Of a DNA stretch of 64,000 nt, positions 18,356-62,445 are shown piece after piece. The stretch is from a phage. Position 1 is the stretch's first letter, and each line of letters begins with the position of its first letter. The position numbers and the translations under genes were made by a program. The notes below the pieces were generated by a model, which worked only from the letters and a program-made list of their open reading frames with translations, ran no database searches and was not told where the DNA came from. Where the stretch lies: NCBI GenBank assembly GCA_020773975.1, contig GCA_020773975.1_3638.1; one strand, 5' to 3'.

Positions 18356-19660
18356 CTACTTACCAGGGAAAGTCTCTTCATAAAACTTAACAAGACGTTG
18401 ATCAACGATAATATCTTTATCCCTGATCCTACGTAATAACCTTAATCCTTTTGCACTTGTTGCTCTGCTAAAAGCCACGTATGCCATGCCTGGTGCAAAA
18501 GTCCCATTGCCAAAGTCAACATTAACTTCCGGTAATGTTAATCCTTGTGCTTTGTGTATTGTAACAGCCCACCCAAGACGAATCGGCAAAGCCCTGTACT
18601 CACCAATGATAATCTTCTCAATTTCTTCAGTTATTGTACCATCTGGGTTTTTCACCTTTATGGGGTTATACTCAACATTTTCCCACACATAAGGTTCTAC
18701 GTCAACAATATCACCATTCTCAAGGCGGACTTTAACACTGTATTTACGTAGTTCAACAATCTCCCCACGGGAACCATTCACATAACTTGGTTCATCCAGA
18801 CCTCTGGGGTCATTGACAGTAATCATCACCTGCGCCCCCTCTTTCAGATATAACTCTTCAGGTACAGGTGTCTGGTTAAATTGCCCTGTCTTTTTTGCCT
18901 TGTAAACTGTTGGGATTCCAGGTATTGCATCAAAACGTTTTTTGTTTATTTTGTCTGCTGCCGCGTTTGTTGAGGTTATTGTTATAGCATCCAAGGGTTT
19001 TCCCATGTTGTAGCAATAAGTATTCATAAACTCAACAATCTCTGGAATACGCTCTCCCTTGCGAAGGCAATTAAGAAGTGTTGAAAAATGAACACTACTT
19101 TGCCTGTATATTTTATCAAGAAATACAGGATATGGGTTCAATTCTTTCCATGTTTTAGAAAAGCAACAAAGTTCTGTGTCGTGGAACTGGTAGTAGATCT
19201 CTTTTTCTTCACCTTTCAAAACAGGTGGATTCTGTAAGAAATCCCCGAACATGCACACCTGCAAACCACCGAAAGGCTCTTTAGGTTTTTTACGTGCCAG
19301 ACGACATTTCATGTCCATTTCCCAAAGTTTGTCTGCCCTGAACATACTTATCTCTTCAATAATAAGAATCTTCAGTGCTTTACTTTTAAGCAACTTCTTA
19401 GCCTTTGCCTTTATCTCTTCTGCATCTTTTTTAGTGGACACGCCTAATGAAAGTCCGAAAGCTCTGTGTGCCGTCATACCATCCACATTAATGGCAGCAG
19501 CCCCTGTAGGGGCCACTGTCAAGACTGAACCTGCGTATAAGGATTGGATAGTTTTTATGGTATGGCTCTTTCCAGCACCTGCATAACCACTGATAAACAC
19601 ATTTTCACCGGACATTATAGCGCCAAGAGCTTCTTCAACGCCAACCCCGTATTGAGACAT
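18356..19660 (-). CDS. SF1B DNA helicase (Dda/RecD/Pif1-like)
   Basis: Walker A GYAGAGKSHT; C-terminal motif AVTIHKAQGLTLPEV and YVAFSRA typical of Dda/RecD-type helicases. Confidence 0.8.
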   Translation of the reverse strand: MSQYGVGVEEALGAIMSGENVFISGYAGAGKSHTIKTIQSLYAGSVLTVAPTGAAAINVDGMTAHRAFGLSLGVSTKKDAEEIKAKAKKLLKSKALKILIIEEISMFRADKLWEMDMKCRLARKKPKEPFGGLQVCMFGDFLQNPPVLKGEEKEIYYQFHDTELCCFSKTWKELNPYPVFLDKIYRQSSVHFSTLLNCLRKGERIPEIVEFMNTYCYNMGKPLDAITITSTNAAADKINKKRFDAIPGIPTVYKAKKTGQFNQTPVPEELYLKEGAQVMITVNDPRGLDEPSYVNGSRGEIVELRKYSVKVRLENGDIVDVEPYVWENVEYNPIKVKNPDGTITEEIEKIIIGEYRALPIRLGWAVTIHKAQGLTLPEVNVDFGNGTFAPGMAYVAFSRATSAKGLRLLRRIRDKDIIVDQRLVKFYEETFPGK

Positions 19661-20634
19661 CAGTCCTCCTTAGATTCTTGTAGATAAATCTCTTCAAGAA
19701 TTTTACCCTGTACACCAATGACAATAATATCTGGTGCACCTGCTGGTTTTGGTGTTCCTGTCAGAACTTCATAACGACAGCAACGGCATTTTTTCTGGTT
19801 ATAGTCATAAGGGACACTGACAATATCTGCCGGATCCACAGATACTTCTACAAGTGCCCTTGAAGTCTTCTCAAAGGTAGCGGCATAGTCAATAGATGCA
19901 ACATGCAAACCTTGGCTACATGTTCTATTGGGATTATCCTCAACCATATTACGTGGCATGGAAATCACTTGCCCTTTATAATTAGGAACTTTACCTGTAT
20001 GACAATCTCGTGGGCCATCTACAGTTATCTTAATTTTCTTGTATGCCTTAATATTTCCGTTTTCAAGGATCTCAAGATCATTATGTTTTACAAAATCATA
20101 AAGCATTTTAACAGAAGCATACGACGGGTTGTGTAGCAACTTCTGCATGAATTTGACATATCGTTCGTCAAAGCAATCATTCTCAATATCTTTAATGATT
20201 CGTTTAGCAATACTGCTTTCCTGTTTTTGACCGTGCCAATATAAAACGTTATCTATCAATACTAAATTATCACCAAAATCAATGGTCTTTTTCTTTTCTG
20301 CTTCTTTCTCTTCCAAAATACGTTGTACAGCAGCATCTATTCCTCCTGTCCAAAGGATAACACCAACTTCTTTGAAGATGGGGCTGCTACTATTTAGAGT
20401 ATATTGTTCACCATTTAACAAAGTGATATGGATATTGTCTTGGGTAACAAGGACAATTGGTTGTGCAAGAGTATGCACTGGCTTCATAATACCTACAGGA
20501 TCTTCCTTAGCCTTTTTGGTTGTCGGCATTCCTTTTTTGGGTGCAACTGTCCAGCGTTTAAGAACATTTAGACCACGATCAACAACCACCATATTATTTT
20601 TCTTAGCGTATTCACGAGCTTCACGACGTGACAT
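19660..20634 (-). CDS. rIIB: rIIB-like protein
   Basis: C-terminal region PRNMVEDNPNRTCSQGLHVAS...VSVPYDYNQKKCRCCRYEV matches the T4 rIIB C-terminus as recalled; lies directly downstream of the rIIA-like gene; first in-frame ATG at 20634 (ORF-track start 20673 is TTG). Confidence 0.7.
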   Translation of the reverse strand: MSRREAREYAKKNNMVVVDRGLNVLKRWTVAPKKGMPTTKKAKEDPVGIMKPVHTLAQPIVLVTQDNIHITLLNGEQYTLNSSSPIFKEVGVILWTGGIDAAVQRILEEKEAEKKKTIDFGDNLVLIDNVLYWHGQKQESSIAKRIIKDIENDCFDERYVKFMQKLLHNPSYASVKMLYDFVKHNDLEILENGNIKAYKKIKITVDGPRDCHTGKVPNYKGQVISMPRNMVEDNPNRTCSQGLHVASIDYAATFEKTSRALVEVSVDPADIVSVPYDYNQKKCRCCRYEVLTGTPKPAGAPDIIVIGVQGKILEEIYLQESKED

Positions 20635-20644
20635 GAATAAAGGA

Positions 20645-22657
20645 TTACTCACCTTTTTCTCCTTTGCTGTCAATAAATTTACGATACTCTAGCATCTCTG
20701 GAGTATTGAAATGCCTAATATTAATGTATTTTAACAATGGGTAACGATCTTTCTTAATCTGTAGTAGCTTTTTCCCAATTCTCTTCTTGGCCTCTATCAT
20801 CCTTAATGCTTTCTCACGACTATCTTCGTAGCCAGGAACTGACCAATAACTGGGTATGTTTACCTTCATCTCCCATTTTGGGAAACTAGCTACCATCACA
20901 CCAAAATAGCTAAGCTCTTTAACAATGTTATGATACTCATGATCTTTCCCCACTTCTTGATATAAATGATATTCAAGAAGGTTAGTTTTTGCAAGAGCAT
21001 GAATATCCTCCTCAGTTATAACCCGTGCCTCATCTGGCAGCCAACTTGATCTGTTTAAAGGCACAATATATAACTTACCAGCTACACCAAGATTCTTAAG
21101 AAATGTTGGTGGTTGCTTTCTCCAAGATGTTCTAAGATTTGTTCTAAGATTGGAAACGTATCCTAACGGGCATAATCCTTTCACCTGCCCACCCCAGTAG
21201 ACCATAGCCGCCTCAATATCTTCAAACTGAGCACGGGAAATGCGGGTTACATCTACGGAGCCATCTTGGTTGATTATCCAAACTTTATGACCCGGTTCGT
21301 AATAACCATAGCCACCATACTTTTTATCTGCTTTTTGCACTGGTCGTTTTTCAAGTTCAGATAACTTGAAAATCATCCCTTCAAAGAATTTATCACTGTA
21401 TAAGGACAGAGCGTAATCAGCATCGGTTATAAATGATCTCTTACCAAACTTCTCTGCGAGCCAGTTACATTTAGAGCGCACATACTTGTGATCATCATTG
21501 TAAACCAGTGGATGACCATTCATCAACTCTGCGTATGAATATCTCTCATCCTTACCACGGCGTGATCCTTCGCCACCATATGTTTCACAGTAATCTATGT
21601 AAGAACCATCAGTATAATTCTTGAACTTATTTGCAATAAAAGCAGCACCGTACTTTGTAGCGAAGTACCCGCCAATAAACTTCATATGATCAAGAACTGC
21701 TTTTAACGTTGGCAGATCGCTTAATTCTTTTGTGATTTCTTCTCCGCGAAGTCGGATAGCTTTCGTCACAAAACTTTCAAGTTTATCACGAAATCCCCCG
21801 TCATTCTTTCCTTCTACTGTCCACTCCCTGCCAGGATCTACATTACAATCCCCAATAGGGATAGATACCGTCATCATAGGCAGTTCTTTGCGAGTAGAGA
21901 GATAATCAGAGAGATATGGTTGTTGCCCCATGATGACAACACTATCAGCGTTTCTTGAAATGCTACTATACATCTCAAGAACCCAGCCAGTCTCCTCATC
22001 CTCATACCGATACTGAACAGGATAAGTGCGATCTTCAATCTGAGTTTTAACAAAAGGATCGTTAATAATATATGGGAATTTGGCATAACGAAGGCATTTT
22101 ACAATAGCCTGTCGATAAGCTCCTGTTTCCCAAGTGTTTACGTTAAATTTAACCTCTACACCATTCTCCTCTGTTGTTTCACAACAGAATAAAGGTACAA
22201 CCTCTGGTATTCCGCTGTTTTTGTGAACAGAGTATGTTGTTTTCACTCCATCTTTAACAGAAACAACTGTGAACATATCTGTTACTGCAAGAGGCGCTTT
22301 TGACCCAATACCTTTCGCGCCAATCAGATCATTACTGTTTCTTTTTGTGGACTTACCAATCATCATGAATGTACGTGTTACCATCTCATGATCCATACCT
22401 AACCCTGTATCCTTAACAGAATACCAAGGTTCCAAGTCTGTTGGTGAGTGGATGATGATGGGTTTATCAGAACACCCTGCCTCTGTATGAGCATCTACAG
22501 CGTTGAAGAGAGGCTCTCGTACTGCTGCCAAAGGTTTATCTTTATAAATTCCATCGATAAGAATACTGAAAGTCTCAGGATTCATTGCAATTGATGCTTG
22601 GTATCTTTCTACGTTCCCAGTTACCTGAACTTTGTTGTCAGATCTTTGAATAATCAT
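20645..22657 (-). CDS. rIIA: rIIA-like protein with N-terminal GHKL ATPase fold
   Basis: Bergerat-fold motifs FNAVDAH, VKDTGLGMD, IGAKGIGSKA in the N-terminal 130 aa; 670 aa; followed by rIIB-like gene. Confidence 0.7.
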   Translation of the reverse strand: MIIQRSDNKVQVTGNVERYQASIAMNPETFSILIDGIYKDKPLAAVREPLFNAVDAHTEAGCSDKPIIIHSPTDLEPWYSVKDTGLGMDHEMVTRTFMMIGKSTKRNSNDLIGAKGIGSKAPLAVTDMFTVVSVKDGVKTTYSVHKNSGIPEVVPLFCCETTEENGVEVKFNVNTWETGAYRQAIVKCLRYAKFPYIINDPFVKTQIEDRTYPVQYRYEDEETGWVLEMYSSISRNADSVVIMGQQPYLSDYLSTRKELPMMTVSIPIGDCNVDPGREWTVEGKNDGGFRDKLESFVTKAIRLRGEEITKELSDLPTLKAVLDHMKFIGGYFATKYGAAFIANKFKNYTDGSYIDYCETYGGEGSRRGKDERYSYAELMNGHPLVYNDDHKYVRSKCNWLAEKFGKRSFITDADYALSLYSDKFFEGMIFKLSELEKRPVQKADKKYGGYGYYEPGHKVWIINQDGSVDVTRISRAQFEDIEAAMVYWGGQVKGLCPLGYVSNLRTNLRTSWRKQPPTFLKNLGVAGKLYIVPLNRSSWLPDEARVITEEDIHALAKTNLLEYHLYQEVGKDHEYHNIVKELSYFGVMVASFPKWEMKVNIPSYWSVPGYEDSREKALRMIEAKKRIGKKLLQIKKDRYPLLKYINIRHFNTPEMLEYRKFIDSKGEKGE

Positions 22658-22677
22658 TCAATACCTCTATGAACTAA

Positions 22678-23223
22678 TTATGCGTCAGGATGCTTGTAAA
22701 AAATATGATTCCCAACCTTCACTGTTTTCACCATGACTTTTGCCCAAGATGGCCTAACAGTAGTTGCATGATAGTACGTTGCTGATTTTGTGTAGTCAAG
22801 AGCCTTGTATAAACTTTTGTGGTCTTTATGCAATCTCATCAAGATTTTAGCATAAAATTTAGCTCTTAACCACCTATCCTTTTCATAGACTTTAAAGGAT
22901 TGCCCACCGAATGTCCAAGAGAATTGCCCCGGCTGGTAAACTACTTTCTTGATAGTATGCGGGAAATTCTTGTCATCTTTTCTATTCAATGTGACAAAAG
23001 CGACACCCATCATTCCATAATCACCTTCTCCTCTTCCCTCTTTATACAAGTTACAGGCAAGAATATTAAGCTCTGTATCATTCTTCTTGCAAATGTGAAG
23101 AACTTGGGGCTTCTTTGCACTTTCTTTGGCTAGAACAGGGGTAATAGACAGAGAAAGTGCACAGCAAACTGCAAATAATAAAGATCTTATTTTCAAAACT
23201 AACTCCAGACAAATAAGCCCCAT
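22678..23223 (-). CDS. secreted cell-wall hydrolase (SleB/CwlJ-like)
   Basis: Signal peptide-like N-terminus (SLLFAVCCALSLSITPVLA) from the first ATG at 23223; motif NLYKEGRGEGDYGMMGVAFVTLNRK as in SleB-family hydrolases. Confidence 0.6.
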   Translation of the reverse strand: MGLICLELVLKIRSLLFAVCCALSLSITPVLAKESAKKPQVLHICKKNDTELNILACNLYKEGRGEGDYGMMGVAFVTLNRKDDKNFPHTIKKVVYQPGQFSWTFGGQSFKVYEKDRWLRAKFYAKILMRLHKDHKSLYKALDYTKSATYYHATTVRPSWAKVMVKTVKVGNHIFYKHPDA

Positions 23224-23237
23224 AAAGGGGCTTTCTG

Positions 23238-23579
23238 TTAACGATGGGTAATATCTCCAGATACTGTGTTTACACTTCCATGGATTGTATTTGCGCAAAC
23301 ATCGCCAGACACCGAAGACACATTGCCTAAGATATCTTTTTCAACATTAATATCCCCAGATGTTGAGATCACACCATTAGAGACATTTCCATAGACATTG
23401 ATACCACCTGATGTTGTACGTACCTCTTTAGCATCACCTTTGATAATAACTGTGATGTTTTTATCGTTTGTGGTATGAACTAAATCACCATTGATATAGA
23501 CATTATCACCCTTAGTGGTGATAGAGATACTACCATTGGTATAGTTTCCAGAAATTGTATTACCATTAATCGTAATCAT
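23238..23579 (-). CDS. beta-helical repeat protein, bactofilin-like (tentative)
   Basis: From ATG 23579: repeated G-N/D-V/I units (ITINGNTISGN...INGDLV...GINVYGNVSNGVISTSGDINV...GNVSSVSGDV...GSVNTVSGDI). Confidence 0.35.
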   Translation of the reverse strand: MITINGNTISGNYTNGSISITTKGDNVYINGDLVHTTNDKNITVIIKGDAKEVRTTSGGINVYGNVSNGVISTSGDINVEKDILGNVSSVSGDVCANTIHGSVNTVSGDITHR

Positions 23580-23754
23580 TGTTTTGTTTCTCTTTAACAA
23601 TAGGTGCTTTCTGAACAGAGTATACAAATGTTTTATTGTCTTCAATAAACTTTCTGCCCTGTTCTTCATCTTCAAAAATAATTGTGTCACACTTTGCCTT
23701 TAACATACCACGTTCTACAGTTGTGTGTGTCGTAGAAACAATTAAAGCCATCAA
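23566..23754 (-). CDS. hypothetical protein
   Basis: 62 aa, translationally coupled to neighbours. Confidence 0.35.
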   Translation of the reverse strand: MMALIVSTTHTTVERGMLKAKCDTIIFEDEEQGRKFIEDNKTFVYSVQKAPIVKEKQNNDYD

Positions 23755-24785
23755 GACACCTCGTTAAGTTGTTCCATGTACCAACTACGGGCTTTATTTG
23801 TTGTAAATTTTGCCACGTCTTTCATAGAAAGAGAATTGGCTTCTAACACATCTGCTTCTTCTTTGTTGATATCGCGGTTAACCCATGCGATAAATGCCCC
23901 CAGAGATGCGATGTCCAATCCAATTTCTTGCAACCCTTGTCGTAAACGGTTCTCAGTAACTGCATACTCCACAAAATCTTTGATAGATTGCAGTTTCACA
24001 GGATCAACAGCAGCCAGGGTTTTCACTTTAGAAACAGAATGTTTTTGCCCTTTCACTTTAAACCAAAGTGCAGAAACATGTGCCAAGTGGCGATCTTTAG
24101 GTGTCCATACCACACCCTCACCAACACCAGATACGCCAAAATATTTACCTACTGGACACTCTTTTTCCACACCTTCGGTAATCTGTGCAATTTCTGATTG
24201 CACTGTCTCTGGCATGTTAAAAGGAATATCCAGTTCCCACTTACCAAAAGTTAAAATATTATAAATACGTTGTTCTGGTAATCCAATGCCAAGAATATCG
24301 TTTAAAGCTAACCATTTCCGATGGTCATTCTCTTTTCCTACTGCCACACGGAAAATAGTAAAGAAAGGCATGATTTCAGATACCGCAACACCTTTCTGGA
24401 TACCTTTCCCTGCAAATTCCCCAGCGATTTCTACTGGGAACTTAAATTCAATACCACGATCTTCGCAGATCTGTTTGACTTGCTCCAACAGGCCTTTAGG
24501 GTCTTTTTCAACCATAAAGGCCATAAACCCATAATTATCTTCTTCCAGAGACAAAACGCGTTCTTTGGACTGGTATACAACCTCATTTTCAGAATTAAAG
24601 ACTACACGGCAATTAGTCCCGTGAATTTTAACTGTTCCTACATAAGGAATGAGATATTGGTCTGGAGAGGCAACCTTACGCTTTATATTGCCATTCTCAT
24701 CACGACCATCATAAGTCAGACGGTCATTAACCGCTCGGATAACATTGCGAAATTGACTAGTGCTTGGGTACTTAGTTGCTTGCAT
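23751..24785 (-). CDS. RNA ligase 2 family (T4 Rnl2-like)
   Basis: Nucleotidyltransferase lysine motif VKIHGTN (KxHGxN) near the N-terminus; 344 aa, same size class as T4 Rnl2. Confidence 0.7.
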   Translation of the reverse strand: MQATKYPSTSQFRNVIRAVNDRLTYDGRDENGNIKRKVASPDQYLIPYVGTVKIHGTNCRVVFNSENEVVYQSKERVLSLEEDNYGFMAFMVEKDPKGLLEQVKQICEDRGIEFKFPVEIAGEFAGKGIQKGVAVSEIMPFFTIFRVAVGKENDHRKWLALNDILGIGLPEQRIYNILTFGKWELDIPFNMPETVQSEIAQITEGVEKECPVGKYFGVSGVGEGVVWTPKDRHLAHVSALWFKVKGQKHSVSKVKTLAAVDPVKLQSIKDFVEYAVTENRLRQGLQEIGLDIASLGAFIAWVNRDINKEEADVLEANSLSMKDVAKFTTNKARSWYMEQLNEVS

Positions 24786-25158
24786 TACTATCTTCCTTAT
24801 TAATAAAAGTCACACCAAGAGTTGCCTGGGCAAGAAGTTTCGTGATCTCCTGGCTCCATACAGGACTGGAGATAAAATGTTGTAATTGGAGGCTACCTAA
24901 GCGATAGGCGCTGTTCATCGTAATAGCATAGATCTCCCCATCGTGCATAATCAGACTTTCGACAACAGAAGTCCTGATATTAGAACCACTAAATCCACGC
25001 TTTTTGAGGTCATCTGCTAAGTATCCGCAGATACAACGCACATCTTTTGTATCACCAAAACCGAAATAGGGTTCAGCACCAAACAGGATACCAGCGTATC
25101 TCTTCCCACAGACATAAGTATCTTTAGATACGCCTGTTACAGATTTACTTTCCATCAT
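24772..25158 (-). CDS. hypothetical protein
   Basis: ORF-track ORF in co-directional array. Confidence 0.5.
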   Translation of the reverse strand: MMESKSVTGVSKDTYVCGKRYAGILFGAEPYFGFGDTKDVRCICGYLADDLKKRGFSGSNIRTSVVESLIMHDGEIYAITMNSAYRLGSLQLQHFISSPVWSQEITKLLAQATLGVTFINKEDSNASN

Positions 25159-61740: not shown

Positions 61741-62445
61741 TTAAGAGTTCAGGACAGATTTAGCTTTATTATAGTATGCAGTTCTTTCAGACAGGTGATT
61801 TGTCCCACCATTCACAAGTTTTGTTATTTTGACAATATCATCAGCATCACAAGCTGCATTAATATCCCGAGATTGCCAGTACCACCCAGCACTTAATACA
61901 GCGTATTCCGGCTGCTCAAGAAGCTCTGGGTGATTAATCAAATCTATACCTAGAGCTTTGCCACAATCTCTATAATTAGCATAACCTGTAATCTGGATAA
62001 GACCTCTTCCTTTATACTTTGCCCCATCACCATCTTTTTCCGGTGTGTTGCCGAGTTTTTTTGCTAGGCTACCTGTATCATACTTATCAAAGTATGCGTC
62101 ATTACCAAGTTCCCTAACATATTTAAACTCAGCGGATTCAACACCTATCTGGGATAAGAAACCAGCTATCCTGTTTGGGGTGTTAATATCTGTTTTCAAG
62201 AAAAGATTGTTTAGAGGCCCAAGAAATTTAGAATTTCTGTTTGCTTTTGCTCCGATAGGAAAGATCTTGTCCAATTGTGTTTGTGTTAGTAGTGTATTTC
62301 CCCCGTTTGTCGAGTTAGCTTTCTGTATGCATTTTTCCAATGCGGATTTAGTGGCGGGGCCATAGATGCCATCAGCCCCTGACTTTCCTACACTAAAACC
62401 ACCATTAATCAGCATACGTTGAATTTCGGCTATCGCAGAGTTCAT
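61741..62445 (-). CDS. endolysin: N-terminal peptidoglycan-binding domain plus GH19 (chitinase-like) catalytic domain
   Basis: DGIYGPATKSALEKCIQ (PG_binding_1-like); KGRGLIQITGYANYRDCGKALGIDLINHPELL ... AGWYW (GH19 signature). Confidence 0.8.
   Translation of the reverse strand: MNSAIAEIQRMLINGGFSVGKSGADGIYGPATKSALEKCIQKANSTNGGNTLLTQTQLDKIFPIGAKANRNSKFLGPLNNLFLKTDINTPNRIAGFLSQIGVESAEFKYVRELGNDAYFDKYDTGSLAKKLGNTPEKDGDGAKYKGRGLIQITGYANYRDCGKALGIDLINHPELLEQPEYAVLSAGWYWQSRDINAACDADDIVKITKLVNGGTNHLSERTAYYNKAKSVLNS

Follow-up and report, generated by a model that had tools for sequence, protein, structure and literature searches.

A Predicted Exported SleB/CwlJ-Type Hydrolase and a Neighboring Beta-Helix Repeat Protein in an Av-05-like Phage

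Two adjacent genes of a phage closely related to Av-05, coding for a SleB/CwlJ-type cell wall hydrolase with a predicted signal peptide and for a small repeat protein, are conserved, annotated and already known features of rV5/PVP-SE1/Av-05-type coliphages and are, as such, largely ordinary. Both open reading frames lie on the minus strand, within positions 22,678–23,579 of the window, by which we mean the whole stretch of 64,000 nucleotides that was analyzed; the hydrolase follows directly downstream of the repeat protein, just as a sequence-only reading of this DNA had proposed. The explanation we favor holds that the hydrolase is synthesized at a low dose, exported and used as an accessory in lysis, and that it and the beta-helix protein are two independent conserved early/middle genes. 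Taken as a whole, we find this explanation reasonably probable, with more confidence in the identity and export of the enzyme and less in its role.

The Locus and Its Relatives

Escherichia phage Av-05 (Vequintavirinae) shares about 96% identity with the window; for nucleotides 22,000–24,800, identity is 96% to Av-05 as well as to four relatives (Vequintavirinae, Avunavirus). Between 19.6 and 26 kb, the window is occupied by a run of minus-strand genes in the following order: a macro-domain protein, a small methyltransferase-like protein, RNA ligase 2 (23,751–24,785), a 62-aa protein (phrog_9816), the 113-aa repeat protein, the hydrolase, an rIIA homologue (20,645–22,657; phrog_612 at 1.7e-125) and rIIB (19,660–20,673). 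Together with a helicase, RNA ligase 2, the macro-domain protein, rIIA and rIIB make the surroundings of both genes a nucleic-acid-metabolism block. The rIIA homologue starts only 20 nt downstream of the hydrolase, and the order of SleB followed by rIIA is kept in rV5, GAP31, Mydo and Av-05. Unlike several of its relatives, the window phage has no small hydrophobic ORF between SleB and rIIA. In CB7, such an ORF follows the hydrolase and is a holin candidate.

Homologues of the hydrolase were found with tblastn in 1,259 phage records (351 from Escherichia phages, 292 from Salmonella, 192 from Pseudomonas, 122 from Klebsiella phages and the rest from others), which span Vequintavirinae, Stephanstirmvirinae, T5-like phages and Pakpunavirus; most of them carry an N-terminal export signal. 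Av05_00150 of Av-05, PVP-SE1 gp243, the SleB protein of rV5, CB7_83 of a Pectobacterium phage and CR3_087 of a Cronobacter phage are orthologues of the window hydrolase, sharing with it a single Hydrolase_2 domain, an N-terminal signal peptide and, mostly, rIIA downstream. Av05_00150 and its counterparts in records of the Av-05 group already bear the annotation "cell wall hydrolase SleB" or "endolysin". Moreover, a SleB-like protein with a signal peptide has been described in all Vequintavirinae genera beside another lysin; its CB7 homologue was reported as toxic when expressed in E. coli ("data not shown"), and CR3_087 was cited as being involved in lysis (PMC7344957). Genome papers routinely report "two lytic proteins" in these phages. 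Since near-identical records annotate the hydrolase and the literature describes a second, signal-peptide-bearing SleB-like lysin, the exported second wall hydrolase is a known, conserved feature of rV5/PVP-SE1/Av-05-type coliphages, and the idea that its presence was unexpected has to be given up. Enzymatic, localization or genetic data on the hydrolase or its close homologues were absent from the literature searched.

Phages bearing the hydrolase also carry a conventional endolysin. In the window, a GH19-type modular protein is encoded on the minus strand at 61,741–62,445, about 39 kb away from the hydrolase, where a separate endolysin had indeed been anticipated: it matched Glyco_hydro_19 at 1.6e-9, while its score against PG_binding_1 stayed below threshold (20.2 bits, cut-off 23). 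No export signal was found in this protein, which is the candidate for the canonical endolysin of the phage.

Family and Putative Catalytic Residue of the Hydrolase

The hydrolase gene most likely occupies positions 22,678–23,196 of the minus strand, the start being set by homologue alignments and a conserved Shine–Dalgarno sequence with a TTG; its longest possible form is 22,678–23,298. Counted from TTG 23,196, the protein has 172 aa, with the stop codon at 22,678–22,680. Its assignment to the SleB/CwlJ type, suspected before, is borne out by a match to Pfam PF07486 Hydrolase_2 covering profile positions 1–100 of 100 (E 4e-21; 76 bits against a cut-off of 27), by a match to phrog_938 "endolysin" (1.2e-26) and by matches to the solved catalytic domains of SleB (PDB 4f55, E 3.7e-9; 4fet, E 2.9e-8). 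Identity amounts to 97% with the protein of the Av-05 group, 59% with that of PVP-SE1 and 50% with that of rV5. No meaningful family emerged for either the hydrolase or the repeat protein from NCBIfam and PADLOC.

The similarity to Bacillus SleB (4F55, 4FET) extends across the whole catalytic domain and preserves the Y-x-E-x-R-G-E motif, the phage L-Y-K-E-G-R-G-E being aligned on V-Y-G-E-S-R-G-E of SleB. Herein, Glu53 of the phage protein (Glu62 when numbered from the annotated ATG), encoded in the motif Y-K-E-G-R-G-E by the GAG codon at 23,038–23,040 of the minus strand, corresponds to the first Glu of YGESRGE in the alignments to both structures and stands opposite residue 26 of 4f55_A. As this chain has 128 residues and would end at 259, chain arithmetic makes residue 26 what we take to be E157 of SleB, presumably the catalytic glutamate (E157 in B. 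cereus, E151 in B. anthracis). Tyr51, Glu53 and Arg55 are invariant in seven phage homologues from four phage groups. Thus, judging by these alignments, the hydrolase retains the putative catalytic glutamate of SleB. SleB is a lytic transglycosylase that depends on an essential catalytic glutamate (PMC12331253), and the phage enzyme is most likely a lytic transglycosylase using Glu53 as well. Some papers call these phage proteins "N-acetylmuramyl-L-alanine amidases"; this name carries on an old database description and is at variance with the structural literature on SleB, which describes a lytic transglycosylase.

Nevertheless, the phage hydrolase is not SleB proper. In contrast to the two-domain Bacillus protein, it has no N-terminal PG_binding_1 domain (no match at E ≤ 0.1), and the mature form has only about 30 residues ahead of the catalytic domain; the resulting single-domain architecture resembles that of CwlJ. 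It also differs from Bacillus SleB by having no YpeB-type partner, by an additional stretch at the N-terminus that contains a conserved pair of Cys residues and by its predicted export to a Gram-negative periplasm, where the host peptidoglycan is devoid of muramic-delta-lactam. SleB and CwlJ act on cortex peptidoglycan containing muramic-delta-lactam, which E. coli lacks, so that activity of the phage enzyme on ordinary peptidoglycan is an assumption.

Start Codon and Signal Peptide

The public annotation of Av-05 starts the hydrolase at an ATG equivalent to position 23,223 of the window. We believe that the real start is most likely TTG 23,196, nine codons downstream, since alignments of homologues begin there and since both the TTG and a Shine–Dalgarno sequence before it are conserved. 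The latter, read from the sequence as GGAG at 23,203–23,206 of the minus strand, lies 6 nt upstream of the TTG. The GGAG motif was present upstream of the start in 6/6 aligned phages, with the copy of pEa55 shifted by one base; PVP-SE1, GAP31, Klebsiella phage Iguana, Proteus phage Mydo and Erwinia phage pEa_SNUABM_55 combine it with a TTG start, too. The corresponding start codon is GTG in rV5 and TTG in phAPEC8.

Read from the TTG, the N-terminus of the hydrolase is MKIRSLLFAVCCALSLSITPVLA|KESAKK, in which the first 23 codons (23,128–23,196, minus strand) encode a predicted cleavable Sec signal peptide cut by signal peptidase I (SPase I) before KE. Called manually by n/h/c-region and −3/−1 rules, it comprises the positively charged n-region MKIR, the 14-residue hydrophobic core SLLFAVCCALSLSI and the c-region TPVLA|KE, with Pro at −4 and V-x-A at −3/−1. 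This is the only strongly hydrophobic stretch of the protein (KD19 maximum of 2.13, at the N-terminus). Equivalent signal peptides occur in the homologues from rV5 (ending in LSLPVVA|AP), PVP-SE1 (TTPVLA|KE), phAPEC8 and muut (both FTPVVA|K/Q) and T5-like phages (MKAALLLIAALTYSFNSHA|T), while a Pakpunavirus homologue begins with a hydrophobic anchor in place of a cleavable signal. The signal peptide that had been noticed from the sequence is therefore canonical in its regions and conserved among homologues, and the hydrolase is predicted to be exported by Sec and cleaved by SPase I after VLA23. In the annotation of Klebsiella phage Iguana, the hydrolase is split, and the signal peptide is lost.

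Other types of N-terminal signal were considered as well. A lipoprotein signal for signal peptidase II was rejected, as Cys11 is preceded by Val and Cys12 by Cys and no lipobox is formed; the "LATAC" of relatives does not qualify as a lipobox either, its Cys at position 12 being too near the N-terminus. Likewise, a signal-anchor-release (SAR) sequence was dismissed because the short h-region leads into a canonical P-V-L-A motif for cleavage (P-V-V-A in homologues).

The mature protein would thus comprise residues 24–172 (149 aa, ~17.4 kDa, pI 9.8). Its two Cys residues, 35 and 48, are conserved in the homologues from Vequintavirinae and Stephanstirmvirinae, and they might possibly form a disulfide in the periplasm.

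A Terminator-like Hairpin Ahead of the Hydrolase Gene

A terminator scan, local folding and conservation point to a terminator-like hairpin, AAGCCCC-TTTAT-GGGGCTT, at 23,215–23,233 of the minus strand. Its G+C-rich stem of 7 bp is placed between the stop codon of the repeat-protein gene and the Shine–Dalgarno sequence of the hydrolase, and the annotated ATG 23,223 falls inside its loop. The same stem, with varied loops and a clear T-rich tail (TTTTTAATTT), is found in PVP-SE1, GAP31, Iguana, Mydo and pEa55, and the arrangement of hairpin and T-tail directly before the Shine–Dalgarno sequence and TTG start was present in 6/6 aligned phages; in the window itself, the T-tail is degraded (ATTTGT). 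At the same place, rV5 has another hairpin, CCCCGC-TTCG-GCGGGG, followed by ATTTTCTATTT and a GTG start, and in phAPEC8 the hairpin is followed by a promoter-like TTGCAA-17-TATACT and then by a Shine–Dalgarno sequence and TTG. Overall, a terminator-like hairpin and a TTG or GTG start precede the gene in all seven phages of Vequintavirinae and Stephanstirmvirinae that were examined. The case for the hairpin is one of positional conservation, since its stem, being invariant, offers no covariation, and the z-score obtained by folding the intergenic RNA (z −1.35) is not significant alone.

Such a conserved combination of hairpin and TTG/GTG start suggests that expression of the hydrolase may be held deliberately low by terminator read-through and a non-ATG start, as would befit a toxic exported wall enzyme. 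Literature searches on transcription timing in Vequintavirinae returned nothing relevant; the one proteomics paper among the results does not mention SleB or a cell wall hydrolase. The conservation of the TTG behind the conserved hairpin also leads us to judge that several public annotations are wrong, provided that the TTG start holds: the Av-05 gene would begin nine codons too early, and the Iguana gene would have been split.

The Beta-Helix Repeat Protein

The neighboring gene (23,238–23,579, minus strand) encodes a protein of 113 aa that matched phrog_3163 in practically its full length (E 5e-28; residues 2–113 on profile positions 16–120 of 121), while no family match was obtained in Pfam and NCBIfam. 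Gly, Asn and Ile each account for 13% of its residues. The motif [ST][STV]SG[GD][IV] recurs at residues 55, 72, 89 and 105, that is, with a period of 16–17, within a repeat core of four coils (residues ~42–113; 23,241–23,456, minus strand), which includes the most conserved columns and reaches pLDDT values of 87–91. The structure prediction suggested in the sequence-only reading has now been run: the AlphaFold2 model, built with 84 sequences, is all-beta with a pLDDT of 84, and the protein is predicted to be a single-chain right-handed beta-helix. It has no hydrophobic segment and hence is presumably cytoplasmic. The protein probably works via protein–protein contacts or self-association.

Of the former label "bactofilin-like beta-helix", only the second word can be kept without reservation. 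The best-scoring fold match was an autotransporter passenger (10.0), followed by an antifreeze protein (9.8), Bacteroidales "putative adhesin/pectinase" proteins of the Toastrack type (9.0, 7.8 and 7.4), the CAP C-terminal domain (8.3), bactofilin (8.2 and 6.6) and MinC (7.3). With bactofilin (PF04519; PDB 6RIA, 2N3D) being one of several equally good matches, with other beta-helices scoring as well or better, and with the window protein giving no match to PF04519 at E ≤ 0.1, membership in that family is not established. Bactofilins are characterized by a right-handed beta-helical core of about six windings, by polymerization that needs no nucleotide and by association with membranes. Foldseek returned nothing significant from the PDB; among viral models, it retrieved family members and one protein named "Bactofilin" (E 2.9e-4). 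Searching PDB sequences with the profile of the repeat family gave nothing significant and no bactofilin. Weak Pfam matches do occur among the 84 family members, namely, to Bactofilin in 7/84 (best 2.5e-5), to DUF4097 (Toastrack) in 6/84 and to FapA in 3/84. As for Toastrack proteins (DUF4097/DUF2807/LiaG; PDB 4YGU, 3JX8, 3LYC, 7MUC) and the MinC/CAP C-terminal and FapA beta-solenoids, sequence matches are far below the curated thresholds, and, in distinction from these, the phage protein stands alone with 113 aa and without a transmembrane or partner domain; Toastrack family membership was rejected accordingly. Nothing relevant on phage bactofilins or phage Toastrack proteins was found in the literature. 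"Bactofilin-like" is, in our opinion, acceptable solely as a description of the fold class. The label "baseplate hub subunit and tail lysozyme", given to homologues by some pipelines, was rejected as well, as the family profile reached only E 1.3 against T4 gp5.

An exhaustive HMMER search recovered 746 cluster representatives of the repeat family at E ≤ 1e-3, as opposed to only 6 homologues from a word-indexed search. The protein is present in 159 phage records, 10 of which belong to Escherichia phages. Among its carriers are PVP-SE1-like phages, Klebsiella, Erwinia and Proteus relatives, Acinetobacter phages, jumbo phages (GAP32, CBB, fHe-Yen9) and the KVP40-like vibriophages nt-1 and ValKK3. 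It is also encoded on ~105-kb non-mobilizable Acinetobacter plasmids, which are probably phage-plasmids. The family is thus widespread, stays outside Pfam and NCBIfam and is often mislabeled.

Do the Two Genes Form a Unit?

The order of RNA ligase 2, small ORFs, repeat protein, hairpin, hydrolase, in some cases the small hydrophobic ORF, and rIIA is kept in Avunavirus, Seunavirus, Mydovirus, Henunavirus and Klebsiella relatives. Keeping in mind that bactofilins organize cell wall enzymes, one might suppose that these neighbors of the same orientation are a functional pair, in which the beta-helix protein would act as a chaperone or inhibitor of a toxic precursor or as a bactofilin-like scaffold that positions wall hydrolysis. 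We consider such a pair very improbable, as the conserved terminator-like hairpin parts the two genes, and their products would finish in different compartments. In addition, the gene upstream of the hydrolase in rV5 codes for an unrelated protein, the repeat protein does not adjoin the hydrolase in phAPEC8, muut, T5-like phages and Pakpunavirus, where the latter has other neighbors, and in GAP32, nt-1, Bestia and KP13-16 the repeat protein has no hydrolase beside it. The Escherichia records, 10 with the repeat protein versus 351 with the hydrolase, are just as uneven. With counter-examples in both directions, an obligate gene pair was rejected, and the pairing, as far as gene order can tell, is subfamily synteny across a terminator-like hairpin.

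Discussion

Phages are familiar with muralytic enzymes that take the Sec route: secretory and SAR endolysins, such as Lys44 of the Oenococcus phage fOg44, Lyz of P1 and R21 of phage 21, reach the wall without a holin and need some other restraint on their activity. The window hydrolase differs from them in its catalytic fold and in being a second enzyme beside a conventional cytoplasmic endolysin; moreover, where a SAR anchor is weakly hydrophobic and remains uncleaved, the signal of the hydrolase looks normally cleavable by SPase I. In the scenario we prefer, translation of the hydrolase would begin at a weak TTG, on transcripts that have to read through the terminator-like hairpin. Sec would export the protein, signal peptidase I would cut it after VLA23, and the mature product would be a soluble, basic periplasmic enzyme (~17 kDa, pI 9.8) acting on the host sacculus. 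There, it might provide an accessory, holin-independent muralytic activity, pre-weakening or degrading peptidoglycan alongside the cytoplasmic GH19 endolysin, while its toxicity would be curbed by low expression.

The lysis role is a less certain part of this scenario, although lysis or lysis control, both raised in the sequence-only reading, is plausible. The gene sits in an early/middle-looking block by rIIA and rIIB, away from late and lysis genes, and the small hydrophobic ORF considered a holin candidate in CB7 is missing here; given this location, an early non-lytic role is equally compatible with the data. The main rival explanation, unlikely in our judgment, sees the exported hydrolase not as a lysis factor at all but as an early periplasmic remodeling factor expressed together with rIIA/rIIB. 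It would trim or loosen peptidoglycan for the sake of infection physiology (cell enlargement, envelope changes) or against superinfecting phages or envelope-associated defenses. A position immediately upstream of rIIA/rIIB in a nucleic-acid-metabolism block and far from the GH19 endolysin speaks for it, as do the preservation of the SleB-(small ORF)-rIIA order in several genera and the sequence signals for deliberately low expression. However, no mechanism is known to us for the exclusion of other phages by a peptidoglycan glycosidase, and related Hydrolase_2 proteins are labeled "endolysin" in other phages. A T5-like homologue located in an early-gene region (PMC3326045) fits early remodeling, but the genes of phAPEC8, T5-like phages and Pakpunavirus have other neighbors, which reduces the rII link to subfamily synteny.

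Entry had also been put forward as a possible function, the hydrolase then being carried by the virion and digesting peptidoglycan as the DNA enters. Many large myoviruses do have a virion lysin, the beta-helix homologues are labeled as tail lysozyme components by some pipelines, and a weak phrog_430 match (E 0.0035) points the same way. Yet a conserved cleavable Sec signal would take the protein out of the cytoplasm, the site of virion assembly, and into the periplasm, so that an entry or virion role is unlikely for an exported hydrolase. The gene is outside the structural module, the similarity of the beta-helix family profile to T4 gp5 is not significant, and Vequintavirinae already possess a gp25-like candidate for a baseplate lysin (PMC7344957). 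We give almost no credence to this possibility.

Overall, we return to the accessory, exported and weakly expressed hydrolase as our preferred interpretation. What makes it worth attention is that over 1,200 phage genomes encode an exported, toxic wall enzyme in addition to a normal endolysin, and no experimental role for it was found in the literature searched. It is tempting to go further and to read the exported SleB-type enzymes as an unrecognized class of early periplasmic wall-remodeling factors and, at the same time, phrog_3163 as a phage-encoded bactofilin/Toastrack-like element that acts on the envelope or division apparatus of the host; we rate this joint reading as quite improbable. 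If it were true, deliberately under-expressed enzymes would act before, and independently of, holin–endolysin lysis, for example in rII-linked envelope conditioning or in exclusion, across large virulent phages of Gram-negative bacteria, namely, rV5-, PVP-SE1-, phAPEC8-, T5- and PAK_P-like ones.

Genes surrounding the SleB-like hydrolase

On the minus strand of the window, upstream of the gene for the predicted beta-helix protein (the repeat gene), there is an ORF of 62 aa (23566-23754) that shares 14 nt with the beginning of the repeat gene. Its product is a member of phrog_9816 (E 3.3e-30), a conserved family of unassigned function, and in related phages the ORF accompanies both the repeat gene and RNA ligase 2. 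Within the beta-helix family, some proteins carry short N-terminal extensions, such as MSWFKRLFG or MNIFNKIF (Acinetobacter phage Bestia, L009 2333-2803; family members P0003 and P0005), while the protein from the window lacks one. These extensions look like amphipathic membrane-targeting helices, which have been described for bactofilins. Beta-helix homologues are inconsistently named in public records from phages (MW006477.1, NC_048807.1, OY978784.1) and a plasmid (CP081146.1), appearing as 'ADP-ribosyltransferase', 'baseplate hub subunit and tail lysozyme', 'tail fiber protein' or 'FapA family protein'; our searches gave no support to any of the four labels.

On the other side of the SleB-like gene, a hydrophobic ORF of 51-76 aa separates it from rIIA in relatives (L003 4060-4215, L012 2123-2296, L013 2131-2361, L014 2120-2275). 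Its product probably has one or two transmembrane segments and is reminiscent of the holin candidate proposed beside CB7_83, the SleB-like protein of Pectobacterium phage CB7. The copy in PVP-SE1 looks degenerate, and in the window no such ORF lies between the hydrolase gene and rIIA, which are separated by a gap of only 20 nt (22658-22677).

Signal peptide, start codon and expression of the hydrolase

The signal peptide encoded in the window (23128-23196) contains a CC pair (Cys11/Cys12) inside its hydrophobic core, where PVP-SE1, Klebsiella phage Iguana and Mydo have one cysteine; the cores of rV5 and phAPEC8 are free of cysteine. There is a loose resemblance to the P1 endolysin Lyz, whose SAR domain contains a thiol. 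However, the catalytic residue of the hydrolase is Glu and its predicted signal looks cleavable, so that the likeness is probably without meaning.

A terminator-like hairpin lies directly upstream of the hydrolase SD, the hairpin, SD and start together occupying 23194-23233 (minus strand); equivalent regions were found in relatives (L006 2850-2890, L003 3488-3530, L002 3488-3530, L004 3395-3478). The start codon is TTG, but GTG in rV5. Public annotations of the gene look wrong. In Av-05 (L001 6679-7224), the start was placed nine codons early (window 23223 instead of 23196), at an ATG falling within the hairpin loop. The Iguana record (L003 3497-3643 and 3672-4055) holds a spurious overlapping ORF and a truncated hydrolase CDS, begun at an internal ATG and thus deprived of its signal peptide; an in-frame TTG at L003 3525 gives the full-length protein.

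In phAPEC8, a good sigma-70-like promoter (TTGCAA, 17 nt, TATACT; L004 3410-3440) sits between the hairpin and the SleB-like gene, which may therefore form its own transcription unit, whereas Vequintavirinae have no room for a promoter there. Overall, the hairpin and the non-ATG start are both kept across Vequintavirinae and Stephanstirmvirinae, and such conservation suggests that low expression of a toxic exported hydrolase has been selected for.
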